Positions 446-13,733 are shown, counted from the stretch's first letter. The stretch is DNA of 64,000 bases from an uncultured Chloroflexia bacterium (GCA_963703575.1 CAVPEU010000015.1:19762-83761); one strand, 5' to 3'. Program-made: numbers and translations. The notes: generated from the sequence alone by a model not told the origin.

Positions 446-446
<1 letters not shown>
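1..446 (-). CDS. nuoM: NADH-quinone oxidoreductase subunit M, N-terminal part; gene continues past the window edge
   Basis: Absent from the ORF track because it runs off the window. My minus-strand translation from the ATG at 446-444 gives MNVSDFPIVSLITFLPLLGAIVVGF...DLFLFYVFWELVLV, a polytopic antiporter-like subunit. Its start overlaps the nuoL stop by 1 nt. Confidence 0.85.
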
Positions 447-2494
<2,048 letters not shown>

Positions 2495-2509
2495 CGTCGT
2501 CCCGCTGCC

Positions 2510-2842
2510 CTATTGCCGCATCGCGTCGTACTCGTCGACGAGCGGCGTCCTGCGGTTGCGGAAGATCGCGATCACGATCGCGAGCCCGACGGTCGCCTCG
2601 GCGGCGGCGGCCGCCATCACGATCAGGACGATCACCGACGCGGTGGTTTTGAGCGAGGGGCTGAACGCGCCGAACGCGATGATCGCGAGGTTGACGGCGT
2701 TGAGCATCAGCTCGATCGACATCAGCATGCTGATCGCGTTCCGCCGGGCCAGGAACCCGAACGCGCCGATCGCGAACAGCAGGCCGGCCAGGACGAGGTA
2801 CGCGTCCAGGGACTGGGAGATCCGGTCGAGCATCGAGAGCAT
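2510..2842 (-). CDS. nuoK: NADH-quinone oxidoreductase subunit K
   Basis: Last 110 aa of the 2510..6346 ORF (MLSMLDRISQSLDAYLVLAGLLFAIGAFGF...). Three TM helices typical of NuoK. ATG at 2842-2840 overlaps the nuoJ stop by 1 nt. Confidence 0.9.
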   Translation of the reverse strand: MLSMLDRISQSLDAYLVLAGLLFAIGAFGFLARRNAISMLMSIELMLNAVNLAIIAFGAFSPSLKTTASVIVLIVMAAAAAEATVGLAIVIAIFRNRRTPLVDEYDAMRQ

Positions 2843-3378
2843 CAGTCGTCCGCCCCGCGCTCGCGCTTGGCGAGGAACACGCCGCCGACCACGGCGGCCA
2901 GGAGCAGGACGCTCACGACCTCGAACGGCAGGACGTAGTCCGTGAACAGCGCGTTCGCCACGTCCTCGGTGCTCGTCCAGACCCGGCCGGCCGTCTGCGG
3001 CCAGTCCGTGGCGGTCACGGTGACCGCGATCAGGATCGCCAGCACCACTGCGGCGATCGCCGCCGGGAGCGCCTGTGTCTGGAACACCAGGCGGCTGGGC
3101 GCGGCCTTGGTCTGGGTGATCATGATCGCGAACAGGACCAGCACGCTGATGGCGCCGATGTAGACGAGTACCTGGGCGCCGGCCACGAGCGGTGCCCCGG
3201 CCATGACGTACAGGCCGGCGAGCGCGCCGAAGGCCACCATCATCGCGAGGCCGCAGCGGATGATGTCGCGCATGCTGACGACCAGCAGCGCGGCACCGAT
3301 CATCACGCCGGCGAACGCGAGGAAGAGCAGGTCGTCCCAACCGATCCCGAGCAACGGGATCGTCCCAGGCAGCGTCAC
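2842..3378 (-). CDS. nuoJ: NADH-quinone oxidoreductase subunit J
   Basis: 178-aa membrane ORF with a NuoJ-like sequence (AGAQVLVYIGAISVLVLFAIMITQ) and operon context. Confidence 0.9.
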   Translation of the reverse strand: MTLPGTIPLLGIGWDDLLFLAFAGVMIGAALLVVSMRDIIRCGLAMMVAFGALAGLYVMAGAPLVAGAQVLVYIGAISVLVLFAIMITQTKAAPSRLVFQTQALPAAIAAVVLAILIAVTVTATDWPQTAGRVWTSTEDVANALFTDYVLPFEVVSVLLLAAVVGGVFLAKRERGADD

Positions 3379-3387
3379 ACGTCCCTC

Positions 3388-6300
3388 TCAGTGATCGTGG
3401 GCGTGGCCCGACCCGTTCCCGGACGCGGCCAGCGCCGCCTGTCCGGTCCCGTGGCCGTTCCCGTTCCCGTTCCCGTTTGCGAGCGAGGCCGGCAGGACCG
3501 GGAGGAGCCGCGAGGAGTCGAGGAGGCGTCCCTCGGCCCGCGCCCGCTCCGCCCAGTCGCGCTCGCGCCGGACGTAGCTCATCTCCGTCTCGCGTTCGAC
3601 CGCGGCCAGCGCGAGGAGGTCGATCATCGGCTCCTCGCGGGACGTGTGGCTGAGCTCGAACTGGTCGCTGTCGCGGACGGCATCGTATGGACAGGCGTCG
3701 ACGCAGATGCCGCACAGGATGCAGCGGCTCTCGTCGACCTCGTACTTCTGCAGGACCCGCGGCTTGGGCATCAGCGCGCCGGTCGGGCACGTCTCCGCGC
3801 ACCGGCCGCAGGACACGCAGGGCGTGTCGTTGAGGCTCATGTCCAGCGGCGTCGTCACCAGGGTGTCGAAGCCGATCCGCATGAAGTCGTAGCACGCCGC
3901 GCCGACGACCTCGGCGCACACGTTCGCGCAGCGGCCGCAGTCGATGCACCGCGACGGCTCCCGGAGGATGAACGCGTGGCTGTCGTCGCGGATGTAGTCG
4001 TGGTTGACGCCCGTGAACCGGTTCTCGGTCACGCTGCGGTAGCCGGCGCCCTGGTGGAACGCGGGCTCCAGCGTCCGGAGCGTGGTCCCGTACTCGATGC
4101 CCAGCCGGCGCAGGTCGCAGAACCCGATCGCCTCGCAGGTGCACTGGAGGCAGCGGGTGGACTCCGCGACGGCCTCGTCCCGGGTGTACGGGATCTCGTA
4201 CTCCATGTAGCTGGTGTTGCGGGCATCCGCCTCGAGGGCCTTGAGGCGGTAGCGCGGCTCCTTGATCTCGCCCGTGAACGGGACGATCGAGAGGAACTCG
4301 GGCTGCGGCTCGGCGAGCGTCTGGCGGGTGCGGATCGCCGCGAGGTCCTGGCCCTTGAGGTAGGCGTCCACCGCGTAGGCGGCACGGCGTCCCTCGGCGA
4401 TCGCCTGGACGACGGTCGCGGCGCCGATCCGCACGTCGCCGGTGCCGAACACGCCGGGCCGGGCCGTCTCGAACGTGACGGCATCCGCGCCCAGCCGGCG
4501 CTGCTTCGTGGCGACCGGGCCGTCGGAGCCGGGACCGATCCAGCGCAGGTCCGGGCCCTGGCCGATGGCCAGCAGCACGCGGTCGCAGGGGATCGTGAAC
4601 TCCGTGCCGGGCGCGGGCTCCGGGCGCCGCCGGCCGGAGGCGTCGGGCTCGCCCAGCTGCATCCGGATGAACTCGACGCCGGTCACCTTGCCGGTCTGCT
4701 CGTCCGTGATGACGCGCGTCGGGCCGGCCTGGAAGATCGCCGTGACCCCTTCCTCGATCGCCTCGTGGACCTCGCCCGACGCGGGCATGTCCTTCATGTC
4801 GCGCCGGTAGACGAGGGTGACCTCCTTCGCGCCCTGGCGGATCGACGTTCGGCTGCAGTCCATCGAGGTGAAGCCGCCGCCGATGACGACCACGCGCGAG
4901 CCCTTGTGCCCCGGGTACTCGAGGCCGAGCGTCGCCGTGCGCAGGTATTCGAGGCCGTCGATGACGCCGTCGGCGTCCTCGTCGGGGATGCCCAGCTTGT
5001 TGGTGTCGTAGCAGCCGATGGCGACGACGACCGCGTCGAAGCCCTGGTTCTGCAGGTCGTCGAGCGTGAAGTCCCTGCCCAGCTCCTGGTTGCACCGGAG
5101 CTGGCCGCCCAGGCGCAGGACCGACTCGTACTCGGCCTCCAGGACCTCGACCTTGGGCAGGCGGTACTGCGGGATGCCGTAGCGGAGCATGCCGCCGGGG
5201 GCGGGGTCCCGCTCGAAGACCGTGACGTCGTGGCCGCTGAGCAGCAGGTAGTAGGCGGCGCTCATGCCGGCCGGGCCGGAGCCGATGACCGCGGCACGAC
5301 GGCCCGACGGCGCCTGGCGCTCGAACGGGATCGGCGGATCCACGTTCTCGTCGAGCATCGACCGGAGGACCTGGTCGCCAGCGTAGCGGTGGCTGTCGCG
5401 GATCGCGATCGCCTCGTCCACCTCGTCCCGGCGGCAGTGCTCCTCGCACGGGGCCGGGCACACCCGGCCGAGCACGGACGGGAACGGGATCGTGCGCTTG
5501 AAGATCCGCGTGCTCTCGCGCCAGTTGGCCTCGGCATTCGCCTTGAGGAAGCCCGGGATGTCGATGTGGCTCGGGCACTTGTTCTGGCACGGCGGCAGGC
5601 AGTAGGCGTTGTGGTCGCTGAAGATCAGCTCGAGGTTCGTCCGCCGCAGCCGGCGCAGATCGTCGGTCTGGGTCTGGACGACCATGTCCGCCTCGGCGTG
5701 GCGGGAGCACGAGATCGGCGGGGTGTCCTCGCCCTCGACCTCGACCACGCACATGCGGCAGGCGCCGAAGCCCGGCAGCTTGGGCTCGTAGCACAGGGTC
5801 GGGATCTCGATCCCGTTGTCCCGGCAGACCTCGAGGATCGTCTGGCCCTCGAAGCCCTCCACGACGCGGCCGTCCACCTCGATCCGGATCCGGGGCGTGC
5901 TCTGCGGGCGTTGCGGCGACTGGGTCGTGATCAACCGCTCGGCGAGCGAATCCTCGCGCGGCGTGAAGGTGTCCAGGAGCGTGGGCGAGTCCGGACGGAC
6001 CTCGCGCGGTCGCTCCAGCCGGGGATCGGGGCGCGTGATCAGGTCGGCCATCTCGGCAATATCCCGGTGGGCCGCGCCGGCCGCCACCGCGATCGGGTGA
6101 CAGACGCCGGCGGGGCAGGTGCTGCGGAGGATGTGGTCGTCGATCTCGGAGCGGAAGTATCGCATCCCGCTCGTGAACGGAAGGGTGGCCAGGCGCTCGT
6201 GGTCGCATAGGCCGCTGGCCGCGATGTCGTGCGCGAGGTCCGCCAGCAGCGTCGCGTCGGTCGGCCTGGGGCGGCCGCCGGCGACCCGGTCGCCGATCTC

Positions 6301-7392
6301 GTACATCCGACGGAGCCCGATCCGGCAGGGGATCGTCTTGCCGCACGCCTCATCGGCCGAGAAGCGGGTCAGCAGCCGGGCCAGGTCCACGACGCAGGCC
6401 CGGTCGTCGGCGATCACCACCGAGCCGGACCCGATATGGGCGCCGGCCGCGCGGAGCGCGTCGAACTCGTAGGGGGTGTCCAGGAGGTCGGCCGGCAGGA
6501 GGCCGCCCGTGGGACCGCCGACGAGGATGGCCTTGAGCGTCCGGCTGCCGGTGCCGCCGACGAGCTCGACCAGCTGGCGCAGCGTCGTCCCGAGCGGGAT
6601 CTCCGCGATGCCGGCACCCTCCGGGCCCCGGAGCTGGACGAGGATCGTGCCGGGGCTGGCGCCGGAGCCGATCGCGGCGAACGCGGCACCGCCCTCGCGG
6701 ACGATCCACGGGACGGCGGCCAGCGTCTGGACGTTGTTGACGACGGTGGGCTTGCCGAACAGGCCCCGCTCGGTGGGGTAGGGCGGCCGCTGCTCGGGCT
6801 GGCCGCGGCGGCCCTCGAGGGCCTTGAGCAGGACGGTCTCCTCGCCCAGCATGTACGCGCCCTGGACCGGGCGAACCGAGAGGAACACCGGGTGGCCGGA
6901 GCCCAGGACGTCCTCGCCGGCGAAGCCGGCCTCCTCGGCCGCGAGGACCGCCGCCTCCAGCCCCGCGACCAGCGCCCCGTCATCCCCGCGGACCGCGAGG
7001 ATGGCCTGCGTGGCCCCGGTCGCGAAGGCCGCGATCACGAGGCCCTCGATGACGGTCCACGGATCGGCGGCGAGGAGCCCGGCGTCCGTGTGCACCGCGG
7101 GGTCCGCGCCGTAGCCGTTGGCGACGACGTACCGCTGGTCCGCGGGCTGCGACGCGGCGGCGCGCCACTTCTCGGCGGTCGGGAACCCGGCGCCGCCGCG
7201 CCCGCGCAGGCCGGCCGCGGCGAGCGTGGCGATCGTGCCCGTGGCCCCCAGGTCCCGGACGGCCTTGCGTAGCCCCTCGAAGGCACCGGCCCGGACGGCC
7301 GCATCCAGGTCGGCGGGGTCGGCGGCGAGCACGTCCACGCGCCCGGTGAGGACGCGGGGCCAGGCGGGCGGCGTGGCGAGGAACGTGGGCAT
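3388..7392 (-). CDS. 1334-aa fusion protein: NuoF-like FMN/NADH domain, NuoG-type 2Fe-2S domain, GltD-like FAD/NAD(P)H oxidoreductase, and multi-[4Fe-4S] ferredoxin domains
   Basis: In-frame part of the 3388..7971 ORF starting at MPTFLATPP; the ATG at 7392-7390 overlaps the upstream stop by 1 nt, and there is no stop codon for 4005 nt. Motifs: GLRGRGGAGFPTAEKW, GAYMLGEETVLLKALEG, DEACGKTIPCRIG, CYEPKLPGFGACRMCVVEV, GRVCPAPCEEHC, AVIGSGPAGMSAAYYL, VVVIGGGFTSMDC, CIDCGRCANVC, CVSCGRCAETCP, CILCGICVDACP. Confidence 0.8.
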   Translation of the reverse strand: MPTFLATPPAWPRVLTGRVDVLAADPADLDAAVRAGAFEGLRKAVRDLGATGTIATLAAAGLRGRGGAGFPTAEKWRAAASQPADQRYVVANGYGADPAVHTDAGLLAADPWTVIEGLVIAAFATGATQAILAVRGDDGALVAGLEAAVLAAEEAGFAGEDVLGSGHPVFLSVRPVQGAYMLGEETVLLKALEGRRGQPEQRPPYPTERGLFGKPTVVNNVQTLAAVPWIVREGGAAFAAIGSGASPGTILVQLRGPEGAGIAEIPLGTTLRQLVELVGGTGSRTLKAILVGGPTGGLLPADLLDTPYEFDALRAAGAHIGSGSVVIADDRACVVDLARLLTRFSADEACGKTIPCRIGLRRMYEIGDRVAGGRPRPTDATLLADLAHDIAASGLCDHERLATLPFTSGMRYFRSEIDDHILRSTCPAGVCHPIAVAAGAAHRDIAEMADLITRPDPRLERPREVRPDSPTLLDTFTPREDSLAERLITTQSPQRPQSTPRIRIEVDGRVVEGFEGQTILEVCRDNGIEIPTLCYEPKLPGFGACRMCVVEVEGEDTPPISCSRHAEADMVVQTQTDDLRRLRRTNLELIFSDHNAYCLPPCQNKCPSHIDIPGFLKANAEANWRESTRIFKRTIPFPSVLGRVCPAPCEEHCRRDEVDEAIAIRDSHRYAGDQVLRSMLDENVDPPIPFERQAPSGRRAAVIGSGPAGMSAAYYLLLSGHDVTVFERDPAPGGMLRYGIPQYRLPKVEVLEAEYESVLRLGGQLRCNQELGRDFTLDDLQNQGFDAVVVAIGCYDTNKLGIPDEDADGVIDGLEYLRTATLGLEYPGHKGSRVVVIGGGFTSMDCSRTSIRQGAKEVTLVYRRDMKDMPASGEVHEAIEEGVTAIFQAGPTRVITDEQTGKVTGVEFIRMQLGEPDASGRRRPEPAPGTEFTIPCDRVLLAIGQGPDLRWIGPGSDGPVATKQRRLGADAVTFETARPGVFGTGDVRIGAATVVQAIAEGRRAAYAVDAYLKGQDLAAIRTRQTLAEPQPEFLSIVPFTGEIKEPRYRLKALEADARNTSYMEYEIPYTRDEAVAESTRCLQCTCEAIGFCDLRRLGIEYGTTLRTLEPAFHQGAGYRSVTENRFTGVNHDYIRDDSHAFILREPSRCIDCGRCANVCAEVVGAACYDFMRIGFDTLVTTPLDMSLNDTPCVSCGRCAETCPTGALMPKPRVLQKYEVDESRCILCGICVDACPYDAVRDSDQFELSHTSREEPMIDLLALAAVERETEMSYVRRERDWAERARAEGRLLDSSRLLPVLPASLANGNGNGNGHGTGQAALAASGNGSGHAHDH

Positions 7393-8054
7393 CAGTCCTG
7401 GCGCCCTCCGTAGCCCAGGGAGGCGTCCAGCGAGGAGCGGTACGCGGACTCGAGGACGCGGTGCGCCTCGCCGGCGGCCGGTGCGGCGGTGATCGCCGGC
7501 GGCTCGAACCGCAGGTGGCGGTAGTACGTGGCGGTCCCGTAGATCATCGCGTACCAGGCGCCCGTCACCCGCGAGATGTGCTTGAGCGCGGCGACCGGCA
7601 GGTAGCCGTACTCCGCCTGCGTCTCCTCGAGGATCGCGAGCATGTCCCTGGGGTCGTAGTCGTGCGCCTCGAGGATCGCGTCGATCGGCGTGGTGTCGAT
7701 GCCCTCGAAGCGGGCGTAGTCGCCGTCCGCCACCGGGCGGCCGGAGCGCCGGAGCGCCGATTCCTCGCGCCGCTCGTCGTACGTCTCGGGCGCGCCCCAG
7801 TGGACGTGGAACCGGCCCTTCGTGTCCACGCCGCCCATGTCGATGCACTCGATCGGGCAGGCCTGGGCGCACTGGAAGCACGTCTCGCACTTGAGCGTGC
7901 CGTACTCGTCGTACAGCAGCTGCAGGCGGCCGCGGAACTTCGGCGCGACGTCCGCCCGGACCTCGGGCCACTGGATGGTCGCCTTGGGCTGGAAGAACCG
8001 CCGCAGCGTGAGGCCCATGCCGCGGACCATGCCCATCCCCGGGATCGTGCTCAT
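7392..8054 (-). CDS. nuoI: NuoI-like subunit (single 4Fe-4S motif) fused to a cysteine-free NuoE-like N-terminal domain
   Basis: 220-aa ORF. The N-terminus (MVRGMGLTLRRFFQPKATIQWPE...PKFRGR...KCETCFQCAQACP) resembles NuoI. The C-terminal part (DAILEAHDYDPRDMLAILEETQAEYGYLPVAALKHISRVTGAWYAMIYGTATYYRHLRF) resembles the NuoE N-terminal helical domain. Confidence 0.8.
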   Translation of the reverse strand: MSTIPGMGMVRGMGLTLRRFFQPKATIQWPEVRADVAPKFRGRLQLLYDEYGTLKCETCFQCAQACPIECIDMGGVDTKGRFHVHWGAPETYDERREESALRRSGRPVADGDYARFEGIDTTPIDAILEAHDYDPRDMLAILEETQAEYGYLPVAALKHISRVTGAWYAMIYGTATYYRHLRFEPPAITAAPAAGEAHRVLESAYRSSLDASLGYGGRQD

Positions 8055-8058
8055 CGGG

Positions 8059-9411
8059 TCACCCGCCCTTCACGGACTGGACCACGAGGATCGCCGCCGC
8101 GGTCAGGAACAGGTTGAGGAGCGCGGCCGGCAGCAGCCACTTCCAGGCCAGCCCCATCAGCTGGTCGATGCGGACCCGCGGCAGCGTGCCGCGCATCCAC
8201 ACGAAGATGAACACGAAGATGAACGACTTGGCCATGAACCAGACGAGGCCGGCGACCCAGTCCAGCCCGACATAGGCGACGCCGAACAGCGCTCCGGCCG
8301 CCAGCAGGCCGGAGAGGAGGAAGCCGAGCACGAGCGCCTGCCAGGCCGGCGTGGAGCTGCGGGCGAGGTAGAACGGCGCCGCGAACAGCAGCGTCAGCAC
8401 CAGGGGGCCGGCCGCGACGAGGATCGGCAGCCCGACCCCGAGCGAGCCCGGGTCCAGCGCGAGCGTGATGTGGGGGAACGGGAAGGGCGCGTTCCAGGCA
8501 CCGAAGAACAGCGTGACGATCAGCGCCGAGACGATGAACACGTTCACGTACTCGGCGAAGTACAGGAAGCCGAACCGCATGCCGGAGTACTCGGTCGCGA
8601 ACCCGGCGACGATCTCCGAGTCCGCCTCGGTCAGGTCGAACGGGGTCCGGTTCGCCTCCGCGGTGGCGGCGATGAAGAAGATCAGCGCGCCCAGGGGCTG
8701 GCGGAACACGAACCAGCTGGTGAACCAGCCCTCCTGTGCCTGCGCGATGTCGTAGACGCTCAGGGTGCCGGCCAGCAGGATCAGCCCCACCACCGAGAGC
8801 GTGAGCGGGATCTCGTAGCTCACGATCTGCGCGGCGGACCGCAGGCCGCCCACCAGCGAGTACTTGTTGAAGCTGGACCAGCCGGCCATCAGCAGGCCGA
8901 CGACGGTCATGCCGCCGACCGCGAACAGGTACAGCAGGCCGATGTTGAGGTCCTGGCCCACCAGCCCCGGGCCGAACGGGATGACCATGAACGTCATCAC
9001 CGCGGTCAGGAACACCACCACCGGGGCCAGGGTGAACACGATGCGGTCCGCCCCGGTGGGAGTGAAGTCCTCCTTGAGCAGGACCTTGAACCCGTGGACC
9101 ACCGACATCGCCGCCCCGCCGGGCCCGATCCGGTTGGGCCCGACCCGGAGGTTCATGTAGGCGATGACCTTGAGCTCCATGTAGATGATGATGAACGCGG
9201 CCGGGATGCTGAACACCAGGACCCCGACGACGGCGACCAGGAACCGGACGATGCCGATGTTCGAGGCCAGGACGTCCACGACCCACGGGCCCACGAACAC
9301 CGCGACCAGCACGGTCAGGACCGGCGCGACAACCAGCAGCAGGAACAGCAGCGGCAGCAGCACCTTGCCGGTGAGGGTCAGGTTGCCCCAGGCACGGTTC
9401 AGCATCGTCAT
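8059..9411 (-). CDS. nuoH: NADH-quinone oxidoreductase subunit H, with an N-terminal extension
   Basis: 450-aa membrane ORF with LRVGPNRIGPGG, FTLAPVVVF and EYSGMRFGFLYFAEY motifs typical of NuoH/ND1. Confidence 0.95.
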   Translation of the reverse strand: MTMLNRAWGNLTLTGKVLLPLLFLLLVVAPVLTVLVAVFVGPWVVDVLASNIGIVRFLVAVVGVLVFSIPAAFIIIYMELKVIAYMNLRVGPNRIGPGGAAMSVVHGFKVLLKEDFTPTGADRIVFTLAPVVVFLTAVMTFMVIPFGPGLVGQDLNIGLLYLFAVGGMTVVGLLMAGWSSFNKYSLVGGLRSAAQIVSYEIPLTLSVVGLILLAGTLSVYDIAQAQEGWFTSWFVFRQPLGALIFFIAATAEANRTPFDLTEADSEIVAGFATEYSGMRFGFLYFAEYVNVFIVSALIVTLFFGAWNAPFPFPHITLALDPGSLGVGLPILVAAGPLVLTLLFAAPFYLARSSTPAWQALVLGFLLSGLLAAGALFGVAYVGLDWVAGLVWFMAKSFIFVFIFVWMRGTLPRVRIDQLMGLAWKWLLPAALLNLFLTAAAILVVQSVKGG

Positions 9412-9418
9412 CGCGGCC

Positions 9419-10654
9419 CTACTTGTCGATGCCGCCCATGACCGGGTCCAGCGAGGCCATCACGGCCATCGTGTCCGCGATCAGGTTGTTGCGCATCATC
9501 GGCCCGACCAGCTGGAGGTTCACGAACGACGGGTCGTGGATCTTCATCCGGAACGGCTGGTCCGTGCCGTCGGAGATCACGTACGTTCCATACATGCCGC
9601 GGGGCGCCTCGACGGCCGCCCAGGCGCGCCCCGGGCGCGGGCGGAGCAGCCGCGGCAGCCGGGCCATGACGGGCCCGTCGGGCATGTTGTGGAGGCACTG
9701 GTCGATGATCCGGAGGCTCTGCTTGACCTCGTCCAGGCGCAGCAGGTAGCGGTCCAGCGAATCCCCGCCGGCGTGGCCGCGGGTCGGGATGTCGAACTCG
9801 AGCTCCGGGTAGACCGAGTAGGGGTGCGCCCGCCGGACGTCGAACGGGACGCCGGCCGCCCGGATGTTCGGTCCCGTGGTGCCCATCCGGAGCGCCGTCT
9901 CGCGGTCCAGCACGCCGATGCCCCGCATCCGGCGCACGAAGATCTCGTTCTCGTTGAGCAGCTGCATGTTCGCTTCGTGCTGGGCGGTCGCACGGCTCAT
10001 CCAGTCGCCGAGGCGGGACATGAACTCGTGGTTCAGGTCCCCGTTGACGCCGCCGATCCGGAAGTAGTTGAACAGCATCCGCTGGCCGGTGATGGCGGCC
10101 AGCATCTCCACGATCTCGTCGCGCTCGATGAAGCTGTACAGGATCGGGGTGAGGCCACCGAGGTCCAGCGCCATCCAGCCCATGTACAACCCGTGGCTGG
10201 CGACCCGGTTCAGCTCCCCGGTCAGGACCCGGATGTACTCCGCCCGCCGCGGCACCTGGACGTCAAGCAGCTGCTCGAACGCCATCACCGGTGCCCACTC
10301 CATGAACAGCGAGCTCACGTACTCGAGCGGGTCCACCTGGCTGAGGATGTGGTGATAGTCCGAGTTCTCGCACAGCTTCTCCACGCCGCGGTGGAGATAG
10401 CCGAGGACAGGGTCCAGGTCCACGACCTGCTCGCCGTTGATCTTGAGCACGATGCGCAGCACCCCGTGCGTGGACGGGTGCTGCGGGCCCATGTTGAGGA
10501 ACATCTCGCCGTCCCGGAGCGAGTAGAACTCGGCCTCGCGCTCGGTGCGCGGCGGGTACGGCGGGACGGCCTCGAACGCACCGATCTGGTCGTCGAGGAG
10601 GATCCGCGGGTCGTCCGCGGACGGGTGCTGGTGGGGCGCGGCGGGAGCGGTCAT
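9419..10654 (-). CDS. nuoD: NADH-quinone oxidoreductase subunit D
   Basis: Start at MTAPAAPHQ (ATG 10654-10652). NuoD motifs FLNMGPQHPSTHGVLRIVL, YLHRGVEKL, EAPRGMYG; C-terminal VMGGIDK. Confidence 0.95.
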   Translation of the reverse strand: MTAPAAPHQHPSADDPRILLDDQIGAFEAVPPYPPRTEREAEFYSLRDGEMFLNMGPQHPSTHGVLRIVLKINGEQVVDLDPVLGYLHRGVEKLCENSDYHHILSQVDPLEYVSSLFMEWAPVMAFEQLLDVQVPRRAEYIRVLTGELNRVASHGLYMGWMALDLGGLTPILYSFIERDEIVEMLAAITGQRMLFNYFRIGGVNGDLNHEFMSRLGDWMSRATAQHEANMQLLNENEIFVRRMRGIGVLDRETALRMGTTGPNIRAAGVPFDVRRAHPYSVYPELEFDIPTRGHAGGDSLDRYLLRLDEVKQSLRIIDQCLHNMPDGPVMARLPRLLRPRPGRAWAAVEAPRGMYGTYVISDGTDQPFRMKIHDPSFVNLQLVGPMMRNNLIADTMAVMASLDPVMGGIDK

Positions 10655-10656
10655 CG

Positions 10657-11205
10657 TCAGGCCTTCACGGTGCGGCGGACCACGGACGGCGTCGCCTGCG
10701 CCGGGACGTGGGTCTGCTCCATGTGGCGGACCCCGCCGCCCGGTGACCGGGCGGCATCGTCTGCCAGGTAGAAATCCTTGCGCAGCGGGAAGCTGGTGTA
10801 GTCGGGCGGCATGTAGATCCGCCGCAGGTCGCGGTTGCCCTCGAAGATGATCCCGAACATGTCGTAGGTCTCGCGCTCCATCCACTCCGCGCCGGGCCAC
10901 AGGCCGGTGAGGGTGGGGATCCGCGGGTCGTCGCGCGGCATGCCGTCCGCGATCACCCGCAGCCAGTCCGCCGTGTTGGGCGACCAGAGGTGGTAGACGA
11001 CCTGCATGTGGGTGCCGGTGTCCACCCCGGCGAGGTCGGCGAGGATCTCGAACCCCAGCTGCGGGTCGTCGTGCAGCTCGCGCATCACCTCCGGCACGTC
11101 GGCCGGCCGGATCCGGATCTCGGTCTGGTCGTGGCGCTGGCGGACGGGGCCGGTGAGGCGCTCGCCGAACTGCGCCTCGAGGCGCTTGCGGAGGCTCCGG
11201 TCCAT
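10657..11205 (-). CDS. nuoC: NADH-quinone oxidoreductase subunit C
   Basis: Start at MDRSLRKRLEAQFG (ATG 11205-11203). NuoC motif WPGAEWMERETYDMFGIIFEGN. Confidence 0.9.
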   Translation of the reverse strand: MDRSLRKRLEAQFGERLTGPVRQRHDQTEIRIRPADVPEVMRELHDDPQLGFEILADLAGVDTGTHMQVVYHLWSPNTADWLRVIADGMPRDDPRIPTLTGLWPGAEWMERETYDMFGIIFEGNRDLRRIYMPPDYTSFPLRKDFYLADDAARSPGGGVRHMEQTHVPAQATPSVVRRTVKA

Positions 11206-11207
11206 GC

Positions 11208-11963
11208 CTAGACGTCCTCCGGCACGGTGGGGCCGATCGGGCGCTCGTGCCACTGGCCGCGCCGCTCCTTGACCAGCTGGCCCAGCTTCATCATCCCGTA
11301 GATCAGGCCCTCCGGGCGGGGTGGGCAGCCCGGCACGTAGACATCGACCGGCAGGACTCGGTCGATGCCCTCGATGGTGGAGTAGCTGCGCTTGTAGCGG
11401 CCGCCGGAGCACGTGCAATCGCCCATTGCCAGGGCCCATTTCGGCTCCGGCATCTCCTCCCACAGGCGGACCAGCGGGCCGGCCATCTTCGTGGTCAGGG
11501 TGCCGGCGACGATCAGGACGTCCGCCTGGCGGGGCGAGGCGCGGAACGGGAACATGCCCCAGCGGTCCATGTCGTTCCTGGACGTTGCGGCGGACATCAT
11601 CTCGATCGCGCAGCAGGCGAGCCCGGACAGCAGCGGCCACAGGCTGTTCATCCGGATCAGGTCCAGGACGACGTCCGCCCGGGTCGGGATCACCTCGAGG
11701 GCGCCCCAACGGGCGTTGTCCCTGACGACCAGCTCGGAGCCTTCCAGGTCGCGCAGGTGCGTGTGCTCGGTCGGCAGGCCGCCGCCGTACGCCTCGGGGC
11801 GCGTGGACGCCCACAGCGTGTTGGGCACGACGATCGGCCGGGTCAGGTCCTGCGGGCCCGCCGCGGCCAGGGACGTGGGACGCTCGCCGTCCCGGCCGGA
11901 TGCCTCGGGGCCGTCGCCCGGCCCGGGACCCGGGATCGCGTCCGGCCCGGGACCGGGGGTCAT
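11208..11963 (-). CDS. nuoB: NADH-quinone oxidoreductase subunit B, with a Pro/Gly-rich N-terminal extension
   Basis: NuoB core motifs [36 protein letters not shown] (N2 cluster cysteines). ATG at 11963 makes an ATGA overlap with nuoA; an alternative GTG lies at 11990. Confidence 0.9.
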
Positions 11964-12349
11964 CGCCACGTGAGCACTCCCTTGCGCCACGCGTAGGCGA
12001 GGCCGATGAGCAGCACCGACACGAAGATCAGCATGCTCACGAAGCCGCCCAGGAGCACGTCGCGGAACACGAGCGCCCAGAGGTAGATGAACACCACCTC
12101 GATGTCGAAGGACACGAACAGGAGGGCGTAGATGTAGAACGAGATGCCGAACCGGGCGTGGGTGTCGCCGTAGGTGTCGATCCCCGACTCGTACGGGTAG
12201 CCCTTGTGGCGATCACCGCGGGTGCGGTGCGAGAGCAGCCACGCGAGCCCGATCGTCAGGAAGACGAACGAGACGCCGGCGATGGCGAACCCGACGACGT
12301 ACCAGATCCCGGTCACTTGGTCCTCGGCATCGAGCGTGGCCGGCCACAT
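11960..12349 (-). CDS. nuoA: NADH-quinone oxidoreductase subunit A
   Basis: Internal ATG at 12349 ([11 protein letters not shown]...). Three TM helices and the NuoA motif [37 protein letters not shown]. Confidence 0.85.
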
Positions 12350-12420
12350 GGGGTCGGCGCCCGCTCGAAGTGCGGTTCCTGGGCAGCCGAGACCCCTGCT
12401 CGGGGTGGCACGGCTCCCGC

Positions 12421-12429
12421 ATTCTACCA
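12421..12429 (-). promoter_or_regulatory. Candidate extended -10 element (TGgTAGAAT) for the nuo operon
   Basis: Minus strand reads gcTGGTAGAATgcggg about 70 nt upstream of the nuoA ATG. No convincing -35 element. Confidence 0.3.
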
Positions 12430-12518
12430 GCGGCGCCCGGCGCACGATCCCTCCGCCCGAGTGTCCCCGGACCTGGTGGGAGCCGCCCGCCGCCCCTCCC
12501 CGACCGGCCCGCCGTCGT

Positions 12519-13733
12519 TCAGGCGCCCGGCCGCGCGAGGCGCCGGAGGCCGTCCAGCCCGGTCCCCGGCGGCAGCCCGCGGCCGAGCACGAGGACGCGG
12601 AACCCGCCCATCCCGCTCGTGTCCATCAGCCGCACCAGCGCGGACCGGAGCGCCAGCGCATCCTGGAGCGTGGCGCCCGGGCGCCGCAGGAACGTGTCGA
12701 CCAGGGCCCCGGAGCCCACCGCGGCCAGCAGCTCCGCCTGGGTCGTCTCCCCGAGGGGCTCCAGGCCGGCCCGGGCGGCCGCGGCGCGGACGGCCGCCAG
12801 GTCCACCGTGGCGGTGAGGTCCTGGCGGCCGACGTGGCGGAACGGGTCGCCGCCGACGGCGTGCCGCGCAAAGGCGCGAATGGTCCCCCTGCGACGCGTC
12901 GGGACGTGGAGCGCGGCCGGCTCCTGCGCGTAGTCCACGAGCACGACGACGCCCCGCTCCAGCCGGCGGATGGCGGCGGCGAGCCAGCCGTCGAGCGCGA
13001 GGCAGACCTCGGTCTCCTGGCCGTCCTCGAGCTCGACGCCTTCGTCCGCGAGGCGCCGCGCGAGGTCGGGGGTCGTGGGCGCCGCCTCCACGTGCACGAA
13101 GCGGCCATGCTCGAACCCGACGAGCAGCTCGTTCGGGCCGCCCGGGCGGCCGATCACGCGGTGGACGGGCAGCGCGTCGAGCACCTCGTTGGCGACGACG
13201 GCGCCCGTCTCCCCCGGTCCGTCCGGGGCCGTGTCCGTCGCCAGCTGCGCGGCCAATCCGTCGCCGGCCAGCCGCGCCTCGAACGCCGCCAGCCGCGCCG
13301 GCTCGATCTCGACCGGCCGGTACCGCACGGCGTCGAGCAGCGGCGAGCCGAGGTCGCGGAGGCCGCCCAGGAGGCCAGCCGCCAGGCTGCCCGAGCCCGC
13401 GCCCGGCTCCGAGATCGTGAACGGCGTCGGGCGGCCCAGGGCCTCCCACGCCTGTTCCAGCAGGCGGCCGATCGCCGCGCCGAAGATCGGGTGGGCATCG
13501 GGCGCGGTCAGGAAGTCGCCCTCCCGGCCCGGACCCGCGACCGGCCGGCGATAGTAGCCATGGTCAGGCTCGTACAAGGCTCGCTCCATGAACCGGGCGA
13601 AGGTGATCGGGCCGGTGGCCTCGATCTCGGCCCGCAGGCGCGCCACCAGCTCGGCATCCTCGCCGACGTCCTCGGGGTCCGGGAGCGTCTCACGGCGGTA
13701 CCCGGGCCGGAACGCGTCGCGGTCCTCGTTCAC
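12519..13733 (-). CDS. MidA/NDUFAF7-family SAM-dependent methyltransferase (DUF185)
   Basis: Motifs FARFMERALYEPDHGYY, GDFLTAPDAHPIFG, ISEPGAGSGSLAAGLL. GTG start at 13733 makes a GTGA overlap with the upstream gene. Confidence 0.85.
   Translation of the reverse strand: MNEDRDAFRPGYRRETLPDPEDVGEDAELVARLRAEIEATGPITFARFMERALYEPDHGYYRRPVAGPGREGDFLTAPDAHPIFGAAIGRLLEQAWEALGRPTPFTISEPGAGSGSLAAGLLGGLRDLGSPLLDAVRYRPVEIEPARLAAFEARLAGDGLAAQLATDTAPDGPGETGAVVANEVLDALPVHRVIGRPGGPNELLVGFEHGRFVHVEAAPTTPDLARRLADEGVELEDGQETEVCLALDGWLAAAIRRLERGVVVLVDYAQEPAALHVPTRRRGTIRAFARHAVGGDPFRHVGRQDLTATVDLAAVRAAAARAGLEPLGETTQAELLAAVGSGALVDTFLRRPGATLQDALALRSALVRLMDTSGMGGFRVLVLGRGLPPGTGLDGLRRLARPGA

Follow-up and report, generated by a model that had tools for sequence, protein, structure and literature searches.

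Genes at the locus

The window, that is, the whole stretch of 64,000 nucleotides that was analysed, carries a complex I operon on its minus strand (Table 1). NuoA, B, C, D, H, J, K and L were all present, with Pfam matches far above the cut-offs; M and N lie off the window. No nuoE, nuoF or nuoG gene was found between nuoD and nuoH in the Pfam annotation of that region. Directly after nuoH comes an ORF of 220 codons, which starts 4 nt past the nuoH stop. Its own stop overlaps the next start (TGATG), with a NuoF-like gene following 1 nt downstream as the first part of a 1334-aa ORF that runs almost to nuoJ. The genome has a G+C content of about 72% and contains many spurious long ORFs. Annotation pipelines call the 220-aa gene “NAD(P)H-dependent oxidoreductase subunit E” or “ferredoxin”.

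Table 1. Genes, domains and motifs of the nuo operon in the window, with the basis of each assignment.
Feature	Position	Strand	Basis or remark
nuoL	446-2494	-	Pfam match
nuoK	2510-2842	-	Pfam match
nuoJ	2842-3378	-	directly downstream of the NuoI C-terminal half
C-terminal extension, conserved (RETEMSY.RRERDWAERA..GR...R.LP.LP), with Gly/Asn/His-rich tail at its end	3388..3603	-	relatives' tails
NuoI C-terminal half (residues 1210-1263): KYEVDESR beta-strand, motif II CILCGICVDACP, NuoI-specific FELSHTSREEP.IDL segment	3604..3765	-	NuoI profiles
Motif II, CILCGICVDACP	3688-3723	-	invariant in 59/59 tails
BfuA/StnC-like part: Fer2 [2Fe-2S], GltD/NfnB-like FAD and NAD(P)H domain, NuoG/HydA-type dicluster	3766..6054	-	Pfam, 9bov_A
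In-frame junction (..AAHRDIAEMADLI..); stop and restart between two genes here in relatives	6037..6075	-	relatives' loci
NuoF/BfuB-like flavoprotein domain (residues 1-446 of the fused 1334-aa ORF)	6055..7392	-	Pfam domains, structure-profile match
220-aa protein: NuoI N-terminal half, linker, NuoE N-terminal helical domain	7392..8054	-	translation, profile matches, homologues
NuoE/BfuC N-terminal helical domain (residues ~121-187), without thioredoxin-like [2Fe-2S] domain	7494..7694	-	PF01257
NuoI N-terminal half (residues ~1-85): N-terminal helix/TLxxFF..T..YP segment and first ferredoxin motif	7800..8054	-	NuoI profiles
Motif I, CETCFQCAQACP (residues 56-67)	7854..7889	-	invariant in 80/80 loci
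nuoH	8059..9411	-	PF00146, E 2e-105; directly upstream of the 220-aa gene
nuoA, nuoB, nuoC, nuoD	9419..12352	-	Pfam matches

The 220-aa protein

This protein contains one CxxCxxCxxxCP motif, CETCFQCAQACP, and C70 (codon 7845-7847), giving five cysteines in total with none beyond residue 70. Two such motifs on one polypeptide, the hallmark of NuoI, were not found in it. Residues 8-83 matched NuoI profiles in their first half only, namely positions 12-88 of 180 in NF004536 (E 2e-14) and 1-65 of 121 in TIGR01971 (E 6.5e-13). The scores of 48-53 bits are far under the curated cut-offs of 113-212. Among solved structures, TYKY/NuoI chains matched best, over residues 8-74 only (E 1.3e-11).

After a linker of about 35 residues, residues 124-186 scored 36.7 bits against positions 1-63 of 145 in PF01257 (NuoE family), a model whose gathering score is 24.8. 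The best solved matches of this domain were 9bov_C, 9n5u_C (NfnC) and 8oh5_A (StnA). Positions 64-145 of the profile were unmatched, and since only 34 cysteine-free residues follow the NuoE match, the thioredoxin-like N1a domain is absent. These matches support the reading of the predicted protein as a fusion of the NuoI and NuoE N-terminal parts.

An earlier note on this DNA, made from the sequence alone, had described a single motif with one extra cysteine and a NuoE helical bundle lacking the thioredoxin-like domain. Both descriptions held, and the profile alignments that it proposed returned the NuoI and NuoE homologies given above. It had also considered that a second motif might have been overlooked: none lies within the 220-aa ORF, but one is present on the next protein.

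The second half of NuoI

The C-terminal part of the downstream protein, encoded immediately ahead of nuoJ, contains CILCGICVDACP followed by FEL.H..R, invariant in 59/59 relatives. The best matches of this tail were NuoI models, in their second half (TIGR01971 positions 71-116 of 121, E 9e-12, 45 bits), and the two ORFs thus match complementary parts of the same profile. Joining both halves artificially gave a continuous TIGR01971 match over positions 1-116 of 121, with 98 bits against a curated cut-off of 113; taken singly, both ORFs stay below every curated NuoI cut-off. A profile built from 24 natural pairs of N-terminal half and tail retrieved TYKY/NuoI chains first among solved structures (best E 1.8e-36), and its positions 9-135 aligned without a gap (127 residues) to positions 85-211 of the TYKY/NuoI chain. 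When the databases were searched with the joined profile, the best 120 matches consisted largely of C-terminal pieces of the big protein or other gene calls of it rather than of canonical NuoIs.

An AlphaFold2 model of the joined window halves had a pLDDT of 78-92 across the ferredoxin core when computed with an alignment of recorded proteins that included canonical NuoIs from a representative search, and of 39 without one. The top 49 Foldseek matches of the model in the PDB were all NuoI/TYKY/NdhI chains, with a core RMSD of 3.5 A to both E. coli 7nz1_I and T. thermophilus 2fug_9. Because canonical NuoIs were in the alignment and the length of the join was chosen by hand, both the model and the gapless alignment are biased in favour of the NuoI fold.

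In the solved homologues StnC, NfnA and HydA, CIDCGRCANVC pairs with CVSCGRCAETCP. This leaves CILCGICVDACP as an orphan motif, and the sole other orphan in the operon is motif I of the 220-aa protein. Motif II lies 20 residues past the preceding CP motif, a spacing equally compatible with a clostridial-type dicluster that includes the preceding motif. All eight NuoI cysteines are present and invariant. With the second motif on the downstream protein, N6a- and N6b-type clusters could therefore be ligated, each by cysteines from two polypeptides. The usual place of NuoI, between nuoH and nuoJ, is retained, with the N-terminal half after nuoH and the C-terminal half just before nuoJ. Taken as predicted proteins, these matches show that NuoI is split in this nuo operon, with motif I on the 220-aa protein and motif II and the rest on the downstream protein.

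The genes nested between the halves

The last part of the 1334-aa ORF before the NuoI tail combines Fer2, a GltD/NfnB-like domain (FAD, NADPH, two [4Fe-4S], CLQCTCEAIGFC motif) and a NuoG/HydA-type dicluster domain (CIDCGRCANVC ... CVSCGRCAETCP), the combination by which Nfn-type BfuA/StnC is recognised. It matched 9bov_A (E 8e-161), 9n5u_A (1e-141) and 8oh5_C (1e-139) over chain positions 4-700. The alignment ends at about 700 of the 1172-1178 positions in StnC/NfnA chains, and the NuoI C-terminal half comes next; the C-terminal FdhF-like (molybdopterin-fold) domain of BfuA/StnC was not found in the window. The GltD FAD motif and the NADPH-type YRR motif were intact.

The NuoF-like part aligned to BfuB chain positions 113-526 of 584 only (E 3e-99 to 5e-102). 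It lacked the N-terminal [2Fe-2S] and the C-terminal 2x[4Fe-4S], and the cluster set B1-B5 of BfuB was not found. Nor was the [2Fe-2S] of BfuC found in the window, where the BfuC part gave matches of E 4e-10 to 2e-8. The FMN loop GRGG(A/G)G(F/Y)P and the GEET and PPYP motifs were retained. In the window's family the NAD-site motif ADE(G/S)EPG(T/A)F has other residues in place of its acidic and aromatic ones (GYGADPAVH) in 64 of the 75 members, and one of the four N3 (B1/N3) cysteines is missing in 73 of the 75.

For all three parts the best solved matches were 9bov/9bp5, confirmed as C. saccharolyticus NfnABC, and 8oh5, confirmed as S. ovata StnABC. These matches show the predicted products of the nested genes (NuoE-like, NuoF-like and Fer2-GltD-ferredoxin) to be homologues of the Stn/NfnABC (Bfu) transhydrogenase. 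Since the NuoI halves flank Bfu genes in the C-B-A (E-F-G-like) order customary for them, the operon reads nuoA-B-C-D-H-[I_N::E_N]-F'-[Fer2-GltD-Fd::I_C]-J-K-L....

The 1334-aa ORF corresponds to two separate genes, a NuoF-like one of about 441 aa and another of about 890 aa, in 68/68 relatives with a readable junction. The in-frame fusion was found in the window only and may reflect a 1-nt assembly difference at the junction. Domain content and gene position support the view that the 220-aa protein physically links the Q-module and the flavoprotein module, much as the earlier note had envisaged with its adaptor, but the giant NuoF fusion to which that adaptor was to be tethered is two genes in the relatives. 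What had been overlooked is that the partner, by homology, is not a rearranged NuoEFG but a module of the Stn/NfnABC type.

Conservation in relatives

There were 2947 protein clusters related to the 220-aa protein. Genes for a relative were found at 539 genome loci or more, and full-length homologues are 70-91% identical. In all 80 loci examined, out of these at least 539, the homologue had exactly five cysteines at the same positions with an invariant motif I, and the tightly coupled downstream gene was kept. Hundreds of Chloroflexota from soil and fresh water share the predicted split-NuoI wiring. The four cysteines of motif I are invariant even across distant families with only 25-40% identity. 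C70 is not conserved outside the window's family, and is Ala or Val in distant families sharing the architecture.

Nesting inside a split NuoI was also found in at least five divergent arrangements (L081, L083, L085, L087 and L089), which differ in domain distribution and some of which have a complete NuoE and a HydB-type NuoF. The complete tails of the divergent lineages all end in RCI(F/Y)CG.CVE.CP...(F/Y)EL; the L083 tail stops at a contig end inside motif II. The position of the halves between nuoH and nuoJ also holds in L081 and L087. The thioredoxin-like domain with its four cysteines, and with it the [2Fe-2S] site of BfuC, was found in the distant relatives P0251/L081, P0262 and P0265, and P0150 keeps two of the four cysteines. 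L081 also has the N- and C-terminal cluster domains of BfuB, and the canonical NADH-site and N3 motifs are fully present in L081 and L087.

Favoured and alternative readings

The reading that we favour, with a probability of roughly 0.78, is a complex I in which a pared-down NAD(P)H dehydrogenase of the Stn type, incapable of bifurcation, would serve as the N-module and be held in place by two [4Fe-4S] clusters that are each formed by two polypeptides. In 2x[4Fe-4S] ferredoxins, and in Nqo9, a cluster takes three cysteines of one motif and the fourth, before the proline, from the other motif. This bears on the adaptor proposed in the earlier note, with one cluster fewer in the NuoI position. 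On such a reading the motif and C70 would make a single [4Fe-4S], and the Fe-S chain would be a cluster short between the input module and N2. The ORF itself does have just one motif and one extra cysteine, and all five are invariant in the family. Yet the fourth cysteine of such a motif ligates the other cluster in ferredoxin folds, C70 gives way to Ala or Val in the distant families, the neighbouring protein carries a complete and invariant second half of NuoI, and the two halves, when joined, match NuoI from one end to the other. We rejected C70 as the fourth ligand of a single cluster, as it is unconserved beyond the family. The claim of a missing cluster is not supported, given the second motif and the NuoI-specific sequence at the C-terminus of the downstream protein, and we consider the one-cluster adaptor improbable. 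Another pairing would join the last motif of the big protein with the preceding CVSCGRCAETCP in a self-contained clostridial-type 2x[4Fe-4S] domain, the NuoI N-terminal half being a structural remnant that does no more than anchor the module to NuoH. Pfam Fer4_7 indeed covers residues 1193-1239 as one dicluster domain, and the 20-residue spacing is compatible. However, CVSCGRCAETCP pairs with the upstream CIDCGRCANVC in all solved homologues (HydA/NuoG/StnC fold) and therefore cannot serve a second partner. The sequence around and after the last motif (KYEVDxxRC...FEL..Y/H..R) is NuoI-specific, and the invariance of the motif I cysteines across families of 25-40% identity would be unexpected for a remnant. 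A self-contained dicluster is thus unlikely.

That the 220-aa ORF is an artefact, either a truncated or frameshifted nuoI or a mis-assembly with incidental NuoE similarity, could be suspected from the base composition, the many spurious long ORFs and the possible 1-nt difference in the neighbouring ORF. Full-length homologues at 70-91% identity in at least 539 independent genome loci and 2947 protein clusters, a NuoE domain exceeding the Pfam gathering score and the recurrence of the architecture in distant lineages make the chance of this negligible. A frameshift or pseudogene was rejected on conservation, in agreement with the earlier note, and the same five cysteines recur in every locus examined. 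A further possibility, which we entertain tentatively, keeps the same anatomy and takes NADH at the NuoF-like FMN as the main entry, with GltD as an NADPH site of accessory or regulatory function, or one that carries out transhydrogenation as a side reaction. The retained FMN-loop, GEET and PPYP motifs, the fully canonical NADH site and N3 of L081 and L087 and the selection that clearly maintains the NuoF-like gene speak for it. The altered NAD-site motif in 64/75 of the window's family, the loss of an N3 cysteine in 73/75 and the intact GltD FAD and NADPH motifs speak against it.

Proposed mechanism and origin

In the shared-cluster complex that we favour, the N6a/N6b-type clusters of NuoI would both be assembled where two polypeptides meet. 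Attachment of the input module to the Q-module would therefore be obligatory. The NuoE-type helical domain of the 220-aa protein would dock on the flavoprotein. Hydride from NAD(P)H would enter at the GltD-type FAD, with the NuoF-like flavin as a possible further electron entry. Electrons would then pass from the GltD clusters through the NuoG-type dicluster domain and the reconstituted NuoI to N2 in NuoB and on to quinone, whose reduction would drive the NuoH/J-N proton pump. The choice of nucleotide and the activity or inactivity of the NuoF-like flavin site are judged from motifs only. The window version would be a simple dehydrogenase that does not bifurcate, because the cofactors by which a bifurcating Bfu core is defined have all been lost: the [2Fe-2S] of BfuC and, in BfuB, the N-terminal [2Fe-2S] and C-terminal 2x[4Fe-4S]. 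NuoE and NuoI lie far apart in canonical complex I. With a linker of some 35 residues here, either the module sits differently or the linker is extended. The simplest origin would be the insertion of a single three-gene bfuC-B-A cassette into the nuoI loop that separates the two motifs, so that both fusions would have arisen at once.

Complex I is usually described as three modules held by protein-protein contacts alone. Here the input module is genetically nested within a core Q-module subunit, and the NuoI clusters would need assembly across the subunit interface. Such clusters would be a new principle for bolting on a module, and raise the problem of which Fe-S insertion step joins the chains. 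The nested module would also tie the soluble Stn/NfnABC transhydrogenases to respiratory complex I via the dicluster “side branch”. Limnocylindria, an abundant soil and freshwater class, may feed NADPH into the respiratory chain. It is conceivable, though doubtful, that the Limnocylindria-type enzyme is a proton-pumping NADPH:quinone (or dual NADH/NADPH) oxidoreductase with a Stn-derived FAD site, and that less reduced relatives of the L081 type, whose full NuoE and HydB-type NuoF with extra clusters retain the whole BfuBC cofactor set, are membrane-bound and couple NADH, NADPH, ferredoxin and quinone by bifurcation or confurcation, held by the shared clusters of split NuoI. Because of the gene names “subunit E” and “ferredoxin”, metabolic reconstructions from genomes could miss NuoI, NuoE and NuoG in such organisms and conclude that they have no complex I.

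Comparison with known systems

The pair of halves resembles NuoI/Nqo9/TYKY (NDUFS8), whose clusters N6a and N6b connect NuoG to N2, in the N-terminal segment, both motifs, their spacing and the FEL..Y.R.DL sequence after motif II. It is likewise encoded between nuoH and nuoJ, and the joined halves align to solved chains without gaps and are predicted to adopt a similar fold. Unlike NuoI, the domain is divided over two polypeptides, with three gene-equivalents (~1.3 kaa) nested between the motifs. With NuoE/Nqo2/HoxE/BfuC the 220-aa protein shares the N-terminal helical domain (profile positions 1-63) adjoining a NuoF-like gene. The window's family differs in lacking the thioredoxin-like domain and its four cysteines (N1a/C1), and in the fusion behind a NuoI half. 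HoxF of NAD-reducing [NiFe] hydrogenases has a NuoE-like N-terminal domain without a cluster.

In Mbx-like operons of Thermotoga and proteobacteria, a gltD-related flavoprotein replaces NuoI (Degli Esposti 2015, PMC4758237). A GltD-type NAD(P)H flavoprotein is thus joined at the NuoI position of a complex I-like enzyme in both cases. The Mbx case, however, is a substitution in an Mbx-type (non-quinone) complex, whereas the nuo operon here keeps both NuoI halves and NuoE/NuoF-like parts. Nuo-Bfu and Mbh-Bfu are predicted membrane complexes (Schut et al. 2022, PMC9304861). In the parts of that account that we consulted, Nuo-Bfu has 14 subunits A-N with BfuABC in the NuoEFG position, an additional flavin subunit is present in the Mbh-Bfu of Dehalococcoides, another member of the Chloroflexota, and neither a split NuoI nor a GltD domain is mentioned for Nuo-Bfu (PMC9304861). 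Compared with Nuo-Bfu as described there, the window's family is Nfn-type (GltD) and nested in nuoI, and would be non-bifurcating in the window. In the open-access full texts searched, we found no description of a split NuoI or of a GltD-type module nested in nuoI.

StnABC (Sporomusa ovata, 8OH5) and NfnABC (C. saccharolyticus, 9BOV/9BP5; archaeal, 9N5U) are Nfn-type Bfu electron-bifurcating enzymes (PMC10482914, PMC11829005, PMC9304861). They are the best solved homologues for all three parts of the nested module and share its domain order of Fer2, GltD and dicluster. In contrast to them, the window's BfuC lacks the [2Fe-2S], and its BfuB lacks the N-terminal [2Fe-2S] and the C-terminal 2x[4Fe-4S] (ferredoxin site). 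The inactive FdhF-like domain (StnC residues 683-1172) is replaced here by the NuoI C-terminal half. The dicluster “side branch” of soluble NfnABC is regarded as a non-functional remnant (PMC11829005). StnABC and NfnABC are soluble, whereas the module in the window is encoded within a complex I operon.

Domain content and operon context of the 220-aa protein

In profile alignments against the NuoI and NuoE families, the 220-aa protein matched the first part of each. NCBIfam NuoI models covered residues 8-83 only, each by the first half of the model only (NF004536 positions 12-88 of 180, E 2e-14; TIGR01971 positions 1-65 of 121, E 6.5e-13), with scores of 48-53 bits against cut-offs of 113-212. 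Residues 124-186 matched positions 1-63 of 145 of the Pfam NuoE family PF01257 at 36.7 bits, above the gathering score of 24.8, and only 34 residues, none of them Cys, followed. Four cysteines (C56, C59, C62 and C66) lie within CETCFQCAQACP, the CxxCxxCxxxCP motif labelled motif I, and the fifth is C70. These half-model, above-threshold and Cys-free features bear out the earlier note's description of a NuoI-like protein with one such motif and an extra Cys, joined to a Cys-free NuoE N-terminal domain.

Relatives of the protein formed 2947 protein clusters, and a homologue was encoded at 539 loci or more in a collection of one genome per species. In all 80 loci kept and fetched, the homologue had exactly five Cys at identical positions and an invariant motif. 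A chance or frameshift origin of the ORF was therefore rejected; the earlier note had likewise seen no obvious frameshift. Most of the 80 loci bear record titles naming Chloroflexota/Chloroflexia or Candidatus Limnocylindrales; a few name Thermomicrobiales, Anaerolineaceae or Sulfomarinibacteraceae. Databases name the gene “NAD(P)H-dependent oxidoreductase subunit E”, “ferredoxin” or “hypothetical protein”. Long antisense or out-of-frame ORFs over the operon (two are tabulated) are by-products of the ~72% G+C content and not genes.

The ORF sits within a minus-strand nuo operon ordered nuoA, B, C, D, nuoH, 220-aa gene, 1334-aa ORF, nuoJ, K, L, with nuoM extending beyond the window edge; no nuoE, F or G was found between nuoD and nuoH in the window operon. 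Four nucleotides separate the nuoH stop from the start of the 220-aa gene, whose stop overlaps the following start (TGATG). The first domain encoded by the 1334-aa ORF is NuoF-like. After it come, in this order, Fer2_4 with a [2Fe-2S] cluster, an FAD/NAD(P)H domain of GltD type that includes the Fer4_20 clusters, a dicluster domain of NuoG/HydA type (Fer4_Nqo3) and one more CxxCxxCxxxCP motif (motif II). The Gly/Asn/His-rich tail of the protein (NGNGNGNGHGTG...GHAHDH) follows a conserved helix-like extension, RETEM.YIRRERDWAERA..GR, and a His-rich C-terminus was seen repeatedly across the family. The “giant” protein of the earlier note is one chain in the window only, where the NuoF-like and Fer2-GltD genes are joined in frame (..AAHRDIAEMADLI..), but two genes in 68 of 68 related loci, where a stop codon interrupts the junction (TGA 52, TAG 10, TAA 6) and the second gene starts at M(M)ADLI. 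The junction length differs by 1 nt between the window and the related loci L005 and L047, and the fusion is either recent or an assembly error.

Features of the window operon and arrangements of divided NuoI (I_N and I_C, N- and C-half of NuoI)
Locus	Feature	Coordinates	Strand	Remarks
Window	nuoA, B, C, D	9419-12352	-	
Window	NuoB ORF	11208-11990	-	~90 extra Pro/Gly-rich N-terminal residues, if the GTG start is right; Pfam domain from residue 126
Window	nuoH	8059-9411	-	long, 450 aa; ~60 residues ahead of Pfam match, insertions inside it
Window	220-aa ORF	7392-8054	-	translation with five Cys
Window	1334-aa ORF	3388-7392	-	
Window	Altered NuoF-like motif sites	7081-7131, 6325-6345, 6196-6210	-	family-wide changes
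Window	NuoF-like/Fer2-GltD junction	6037-6075	-	
Window	Gly/Asn/His-rich tail	3391-3477	-	
Window	nuoJ, K, L	446-3378	-	
Window	218-aa ORF	7461-8117	+	antisense over 220-aa gene
Window	1527-aa ORF	3388-7971		overlaps nuo operon
Window family	nuoA-B-C-D-H-[I_N::NuoE N-domain]-[short NuoF]-[Fer2-GltD-Fd::I_C]-J-K-L			
L081	nuoA-B-C-D-H-[I_N::full NuoE, four Cys]-[HydB-type NuoF]-[Fer2-GltD-Fd::I_C]-J-K-L-M-N			NuoF has [2Fe-2S] at its N-terminus and 2x[4Fe-4S] at its C-terminus; small-protein family of 1204 clusters, one named Thermoleophilia
L083	D-H-[I_N::NuoE]-short NuoF-[Fer2-GltD-Fd::...]			contig ends inside motif II of tail
L085	nuoA-B-C-D-H-[I_N::NuoE N-domain]-short NuoF-[Fer2-GltD-Fd::I_C]			nuoJ-N not downstream
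L085 (GCA_016190715.1)	nuoA-B-C-D-H plus module, then flavin reductase, ferredoxin, pyruvate:ferredoxin oxidoreductase genes	5481-13281		last-named genes in place of nuoJ-N
L087	H-[I_N::NuoE]-[NuoE-like + NuoF + GltD, 1048 aa]-[265-aa mini-NuoG::I_C]-J-K-L-M-N			
L087	GltD fused behind NuoF, then mini-NuoG::I_C	2076-6023		fusion of 1048 aa with NuoE-like N-terminus
L089	nuoB-[I_N::NuoE N-domain]-NuoF-[Fer2-GltD-Fd::I_C]	8392-13515		separate cluster
L088	P0390, unsplit NuoI of 216 aa	258-908		between nuoH end and nuoJ start

The second half of NuoI

NuoI is divided between the two proteins, with an Nfn-type module nested between its halves. The best NCBIfam matches of the last 128 residues of the 1334-aa protein were the second halves of NuoI models (TIGR01971 positions 71-116 of 121, E 9e-12; NF004537 positions 100-146 of 204), exactly complementary to the coverage of the small protein. 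An artificial join of small-protein residues 1-87 and big-protein residues 1211-1334 matched TIGR01971 continuously over positions 1-116 of 121, scoring 98 bits where the cut-off is 113. Motif II, CILCGICVDACP, and the subsequent FEL.H..R..P.IDL were invariant or nearly so in 59 of 59 relatives with a readable tail. The claim of the earlier note that one cluster is missing was thus not supported.

A profile from 24 natural pairs of N-half and tail ranked the TYKY/NuoI chains of solved complex I first (best E 1.8e-36, profile 9-135 on chain 85-211, gapless); the small protein alone reached 1.3e-11 over residues 8-74 only. AlphaFold2 gave the joined window halves a pLDDT of 39 without an alignment, and of 78-92 over residues 41-110 with an alignment of the recorded halves and canonical NuoIs. 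The top 49 PDB matches of this model in Foldseek were all NuoI/TYKY/NdhI chains, and its core superposed on E. coli 7nz1_I and T. thermophilus 2fug_9 with an RMSD of 3.5 A. Since the length of the join was our choice and canonical NuoIs were part of the alignment, these results show compatibility and are not independent proof.

In the solved homologues StnC, NfnA, HydA and NuoG, the equivalents of CIDCGRCANVC and CVSCGRCAETCP make one dicluster domain, which leaves the third motif of the big protein unpaired in its own chain. Motif I is the sole other unpaired motif of the operon. In 2x[4Fe-4S] ferredoxin folds, such as clostridial ferredoxins and Nqo9, each cluster draws three Cys ligands from one motif and its fourth, the Cys next to Pro, from the other, so both NuoI clusters would be common to two polypeptides.

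An unsplit NuoI was encountered on a 1105-bp ENA contig (L088). Its N-half belongs to another type, the canonical one, and its C-half and extension, with 81% DNA identity to window positions 3553-3749, are of the Limnocylindria family type. G+C climbs from ~0.6 to ~0.76 across the junction, and the contig is an assembly chimera or else a real relative in which NuoI is undivided.

Divided NuoI in other lineages

More distant fusions of the NuoI N-half with NuoE turned up among 1.84 billion representative proteins, bringing the documented arrangements to six. The four Cys of motif I were invariant across the families of all six; C70 was not. Every complete arrangement ended its last protein with the NuoI C-half, RCI(F/Y)CG.CVE.CP...(F/Y)EL. 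The split architecture predates the window family. Its simplest history would be a single insertion of a bfuC-B-A cassette, from the electron-bifurcating Bfu family, into the inter-motif loop of nuoI, after which bifurcation cofactors would have been lost lineage by lineage.

The C-half in L087 is borne by a mini-NuoG of Fer2, a His-type cluster and a dicluster. The domain distribution in this locus marks GltD as a movable accessory, the junction of NuoG dicluster and NuoI C-half being constant. The antiporter-like subunits of L085 are either elsewhere or absent. L089 has a true NuoB (CCAIEM...GCPPRPE) clustered only with split-NuoI, NuoF and GltD genes, and no further nuo genes were found within 9 kb; it forms a locus of its own or, possibly, encodes a smaller complex.

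Proposed electron path

Judging from motifs, hydride would pass from NAD(P)H to the GltD FAD, the NuoF-like flavin being another possible entry. Two GltD [4Fe-4S] clusters would carry electrons on to the NuoG-type clusters and dicluster domain, then to N6a/N6b-type clusters of the reconstituted NuoI, N2 in NuoB and quinone, with NuoH and NuoJ-N pumping protons. The location of the NuoI-N/NuoE-N fusion between nuoH and the NuoF-like part supports the adaptor role proposed in the earlier note. Only ~35 residues link its two domains, whereas NuoE is far from NuoI in canonical complex I.

The anatomy is shown; the direction of electron flow, the nucleotide used and what the NuoF-like domain does are likewise read from motifs. 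The main functional rival, in which NADH at the NuoF flavin stays the principal entry, appears rather unlikely. The GltD FAD motif (VIGSGPAG) and NADPH-type segment (VIGGGFTSMD...VYRR) are intact. In the NuoF-like domain, the NAD(H)-site motif CNADEG(D/E)PG(A/T)F is replaced by ANGYGADPAVH in 64 of 75 family members; the short-NuoF relatives L083 and L085 share the GYGADP change. The N3/B1 motif CGKCxPC has become CGK(T/S)IPC, losing one Cys (73/75), and LCGLG has become LCDHE, with a new His beside the fourth Cys (65/75).

Comparison with known systems

In the open-access literature, as far as its text was available, no description was found of a NuoI split across two polypeptides or of an Nfn-type module nested in nuoI. 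The operon most likely encodes a complex I whose input module is an alternative one, attached in a way that is unreported in the open-access literature searched. Known related systems are the soluble Stn/NfnABC enzymes (PMC10482914, PMC11829005, PMC12018979), the predicted complexes “Nuo-Bfu”, in which BfuABC takes the place of NuoEFG, and “Mbh-Bfu” (PMC9304861), and an Mbx-like operon with a gltD-related flavoprotein instead of NuoI (PMC4758237).

The best solved homologues of all three nested parts were subunits of Nfn-type Bfu enzymes, namely StnABC of Sporomusa ovata (8OH5) and NfnABC, including that of Caldicellulosiruptor saccharolyticus (9BOV/9BP5). The Fer2-GltD-dicluster part aligned to chain positions 4-700 of 9bov_A (E 8e-161), 9n5u_A “NfnA” (1e-141) and 8oh5_C (1e-139). 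The NuoF-like part matched 9bov_B, 9n5u_B and 8oh5_B (E 5e-102 to 3e-99) over positions 113-526 of 584 only, and the NuoE-like part matched 9bov_C, 9n5u_C and 8oh5_A. Unlike the bifurcating Bfu core (PMC9304861), the window version lacks the BfuC [2Fe-2S] and the N-terminal [2Fe-2S] and C-terminal 2x[4Fe-4S] of BfuB. StnC and NfnA carry an inactive FdhF-like domain after the dicluster domain (StnC residues 683-1172), and the dicluster/FdhF-like branch of NfnA is considered a non-functional remnant (PMC11829005). Where StnC and NfnA have this FdhF-like domain, the big protein has the C-half of NuoI.
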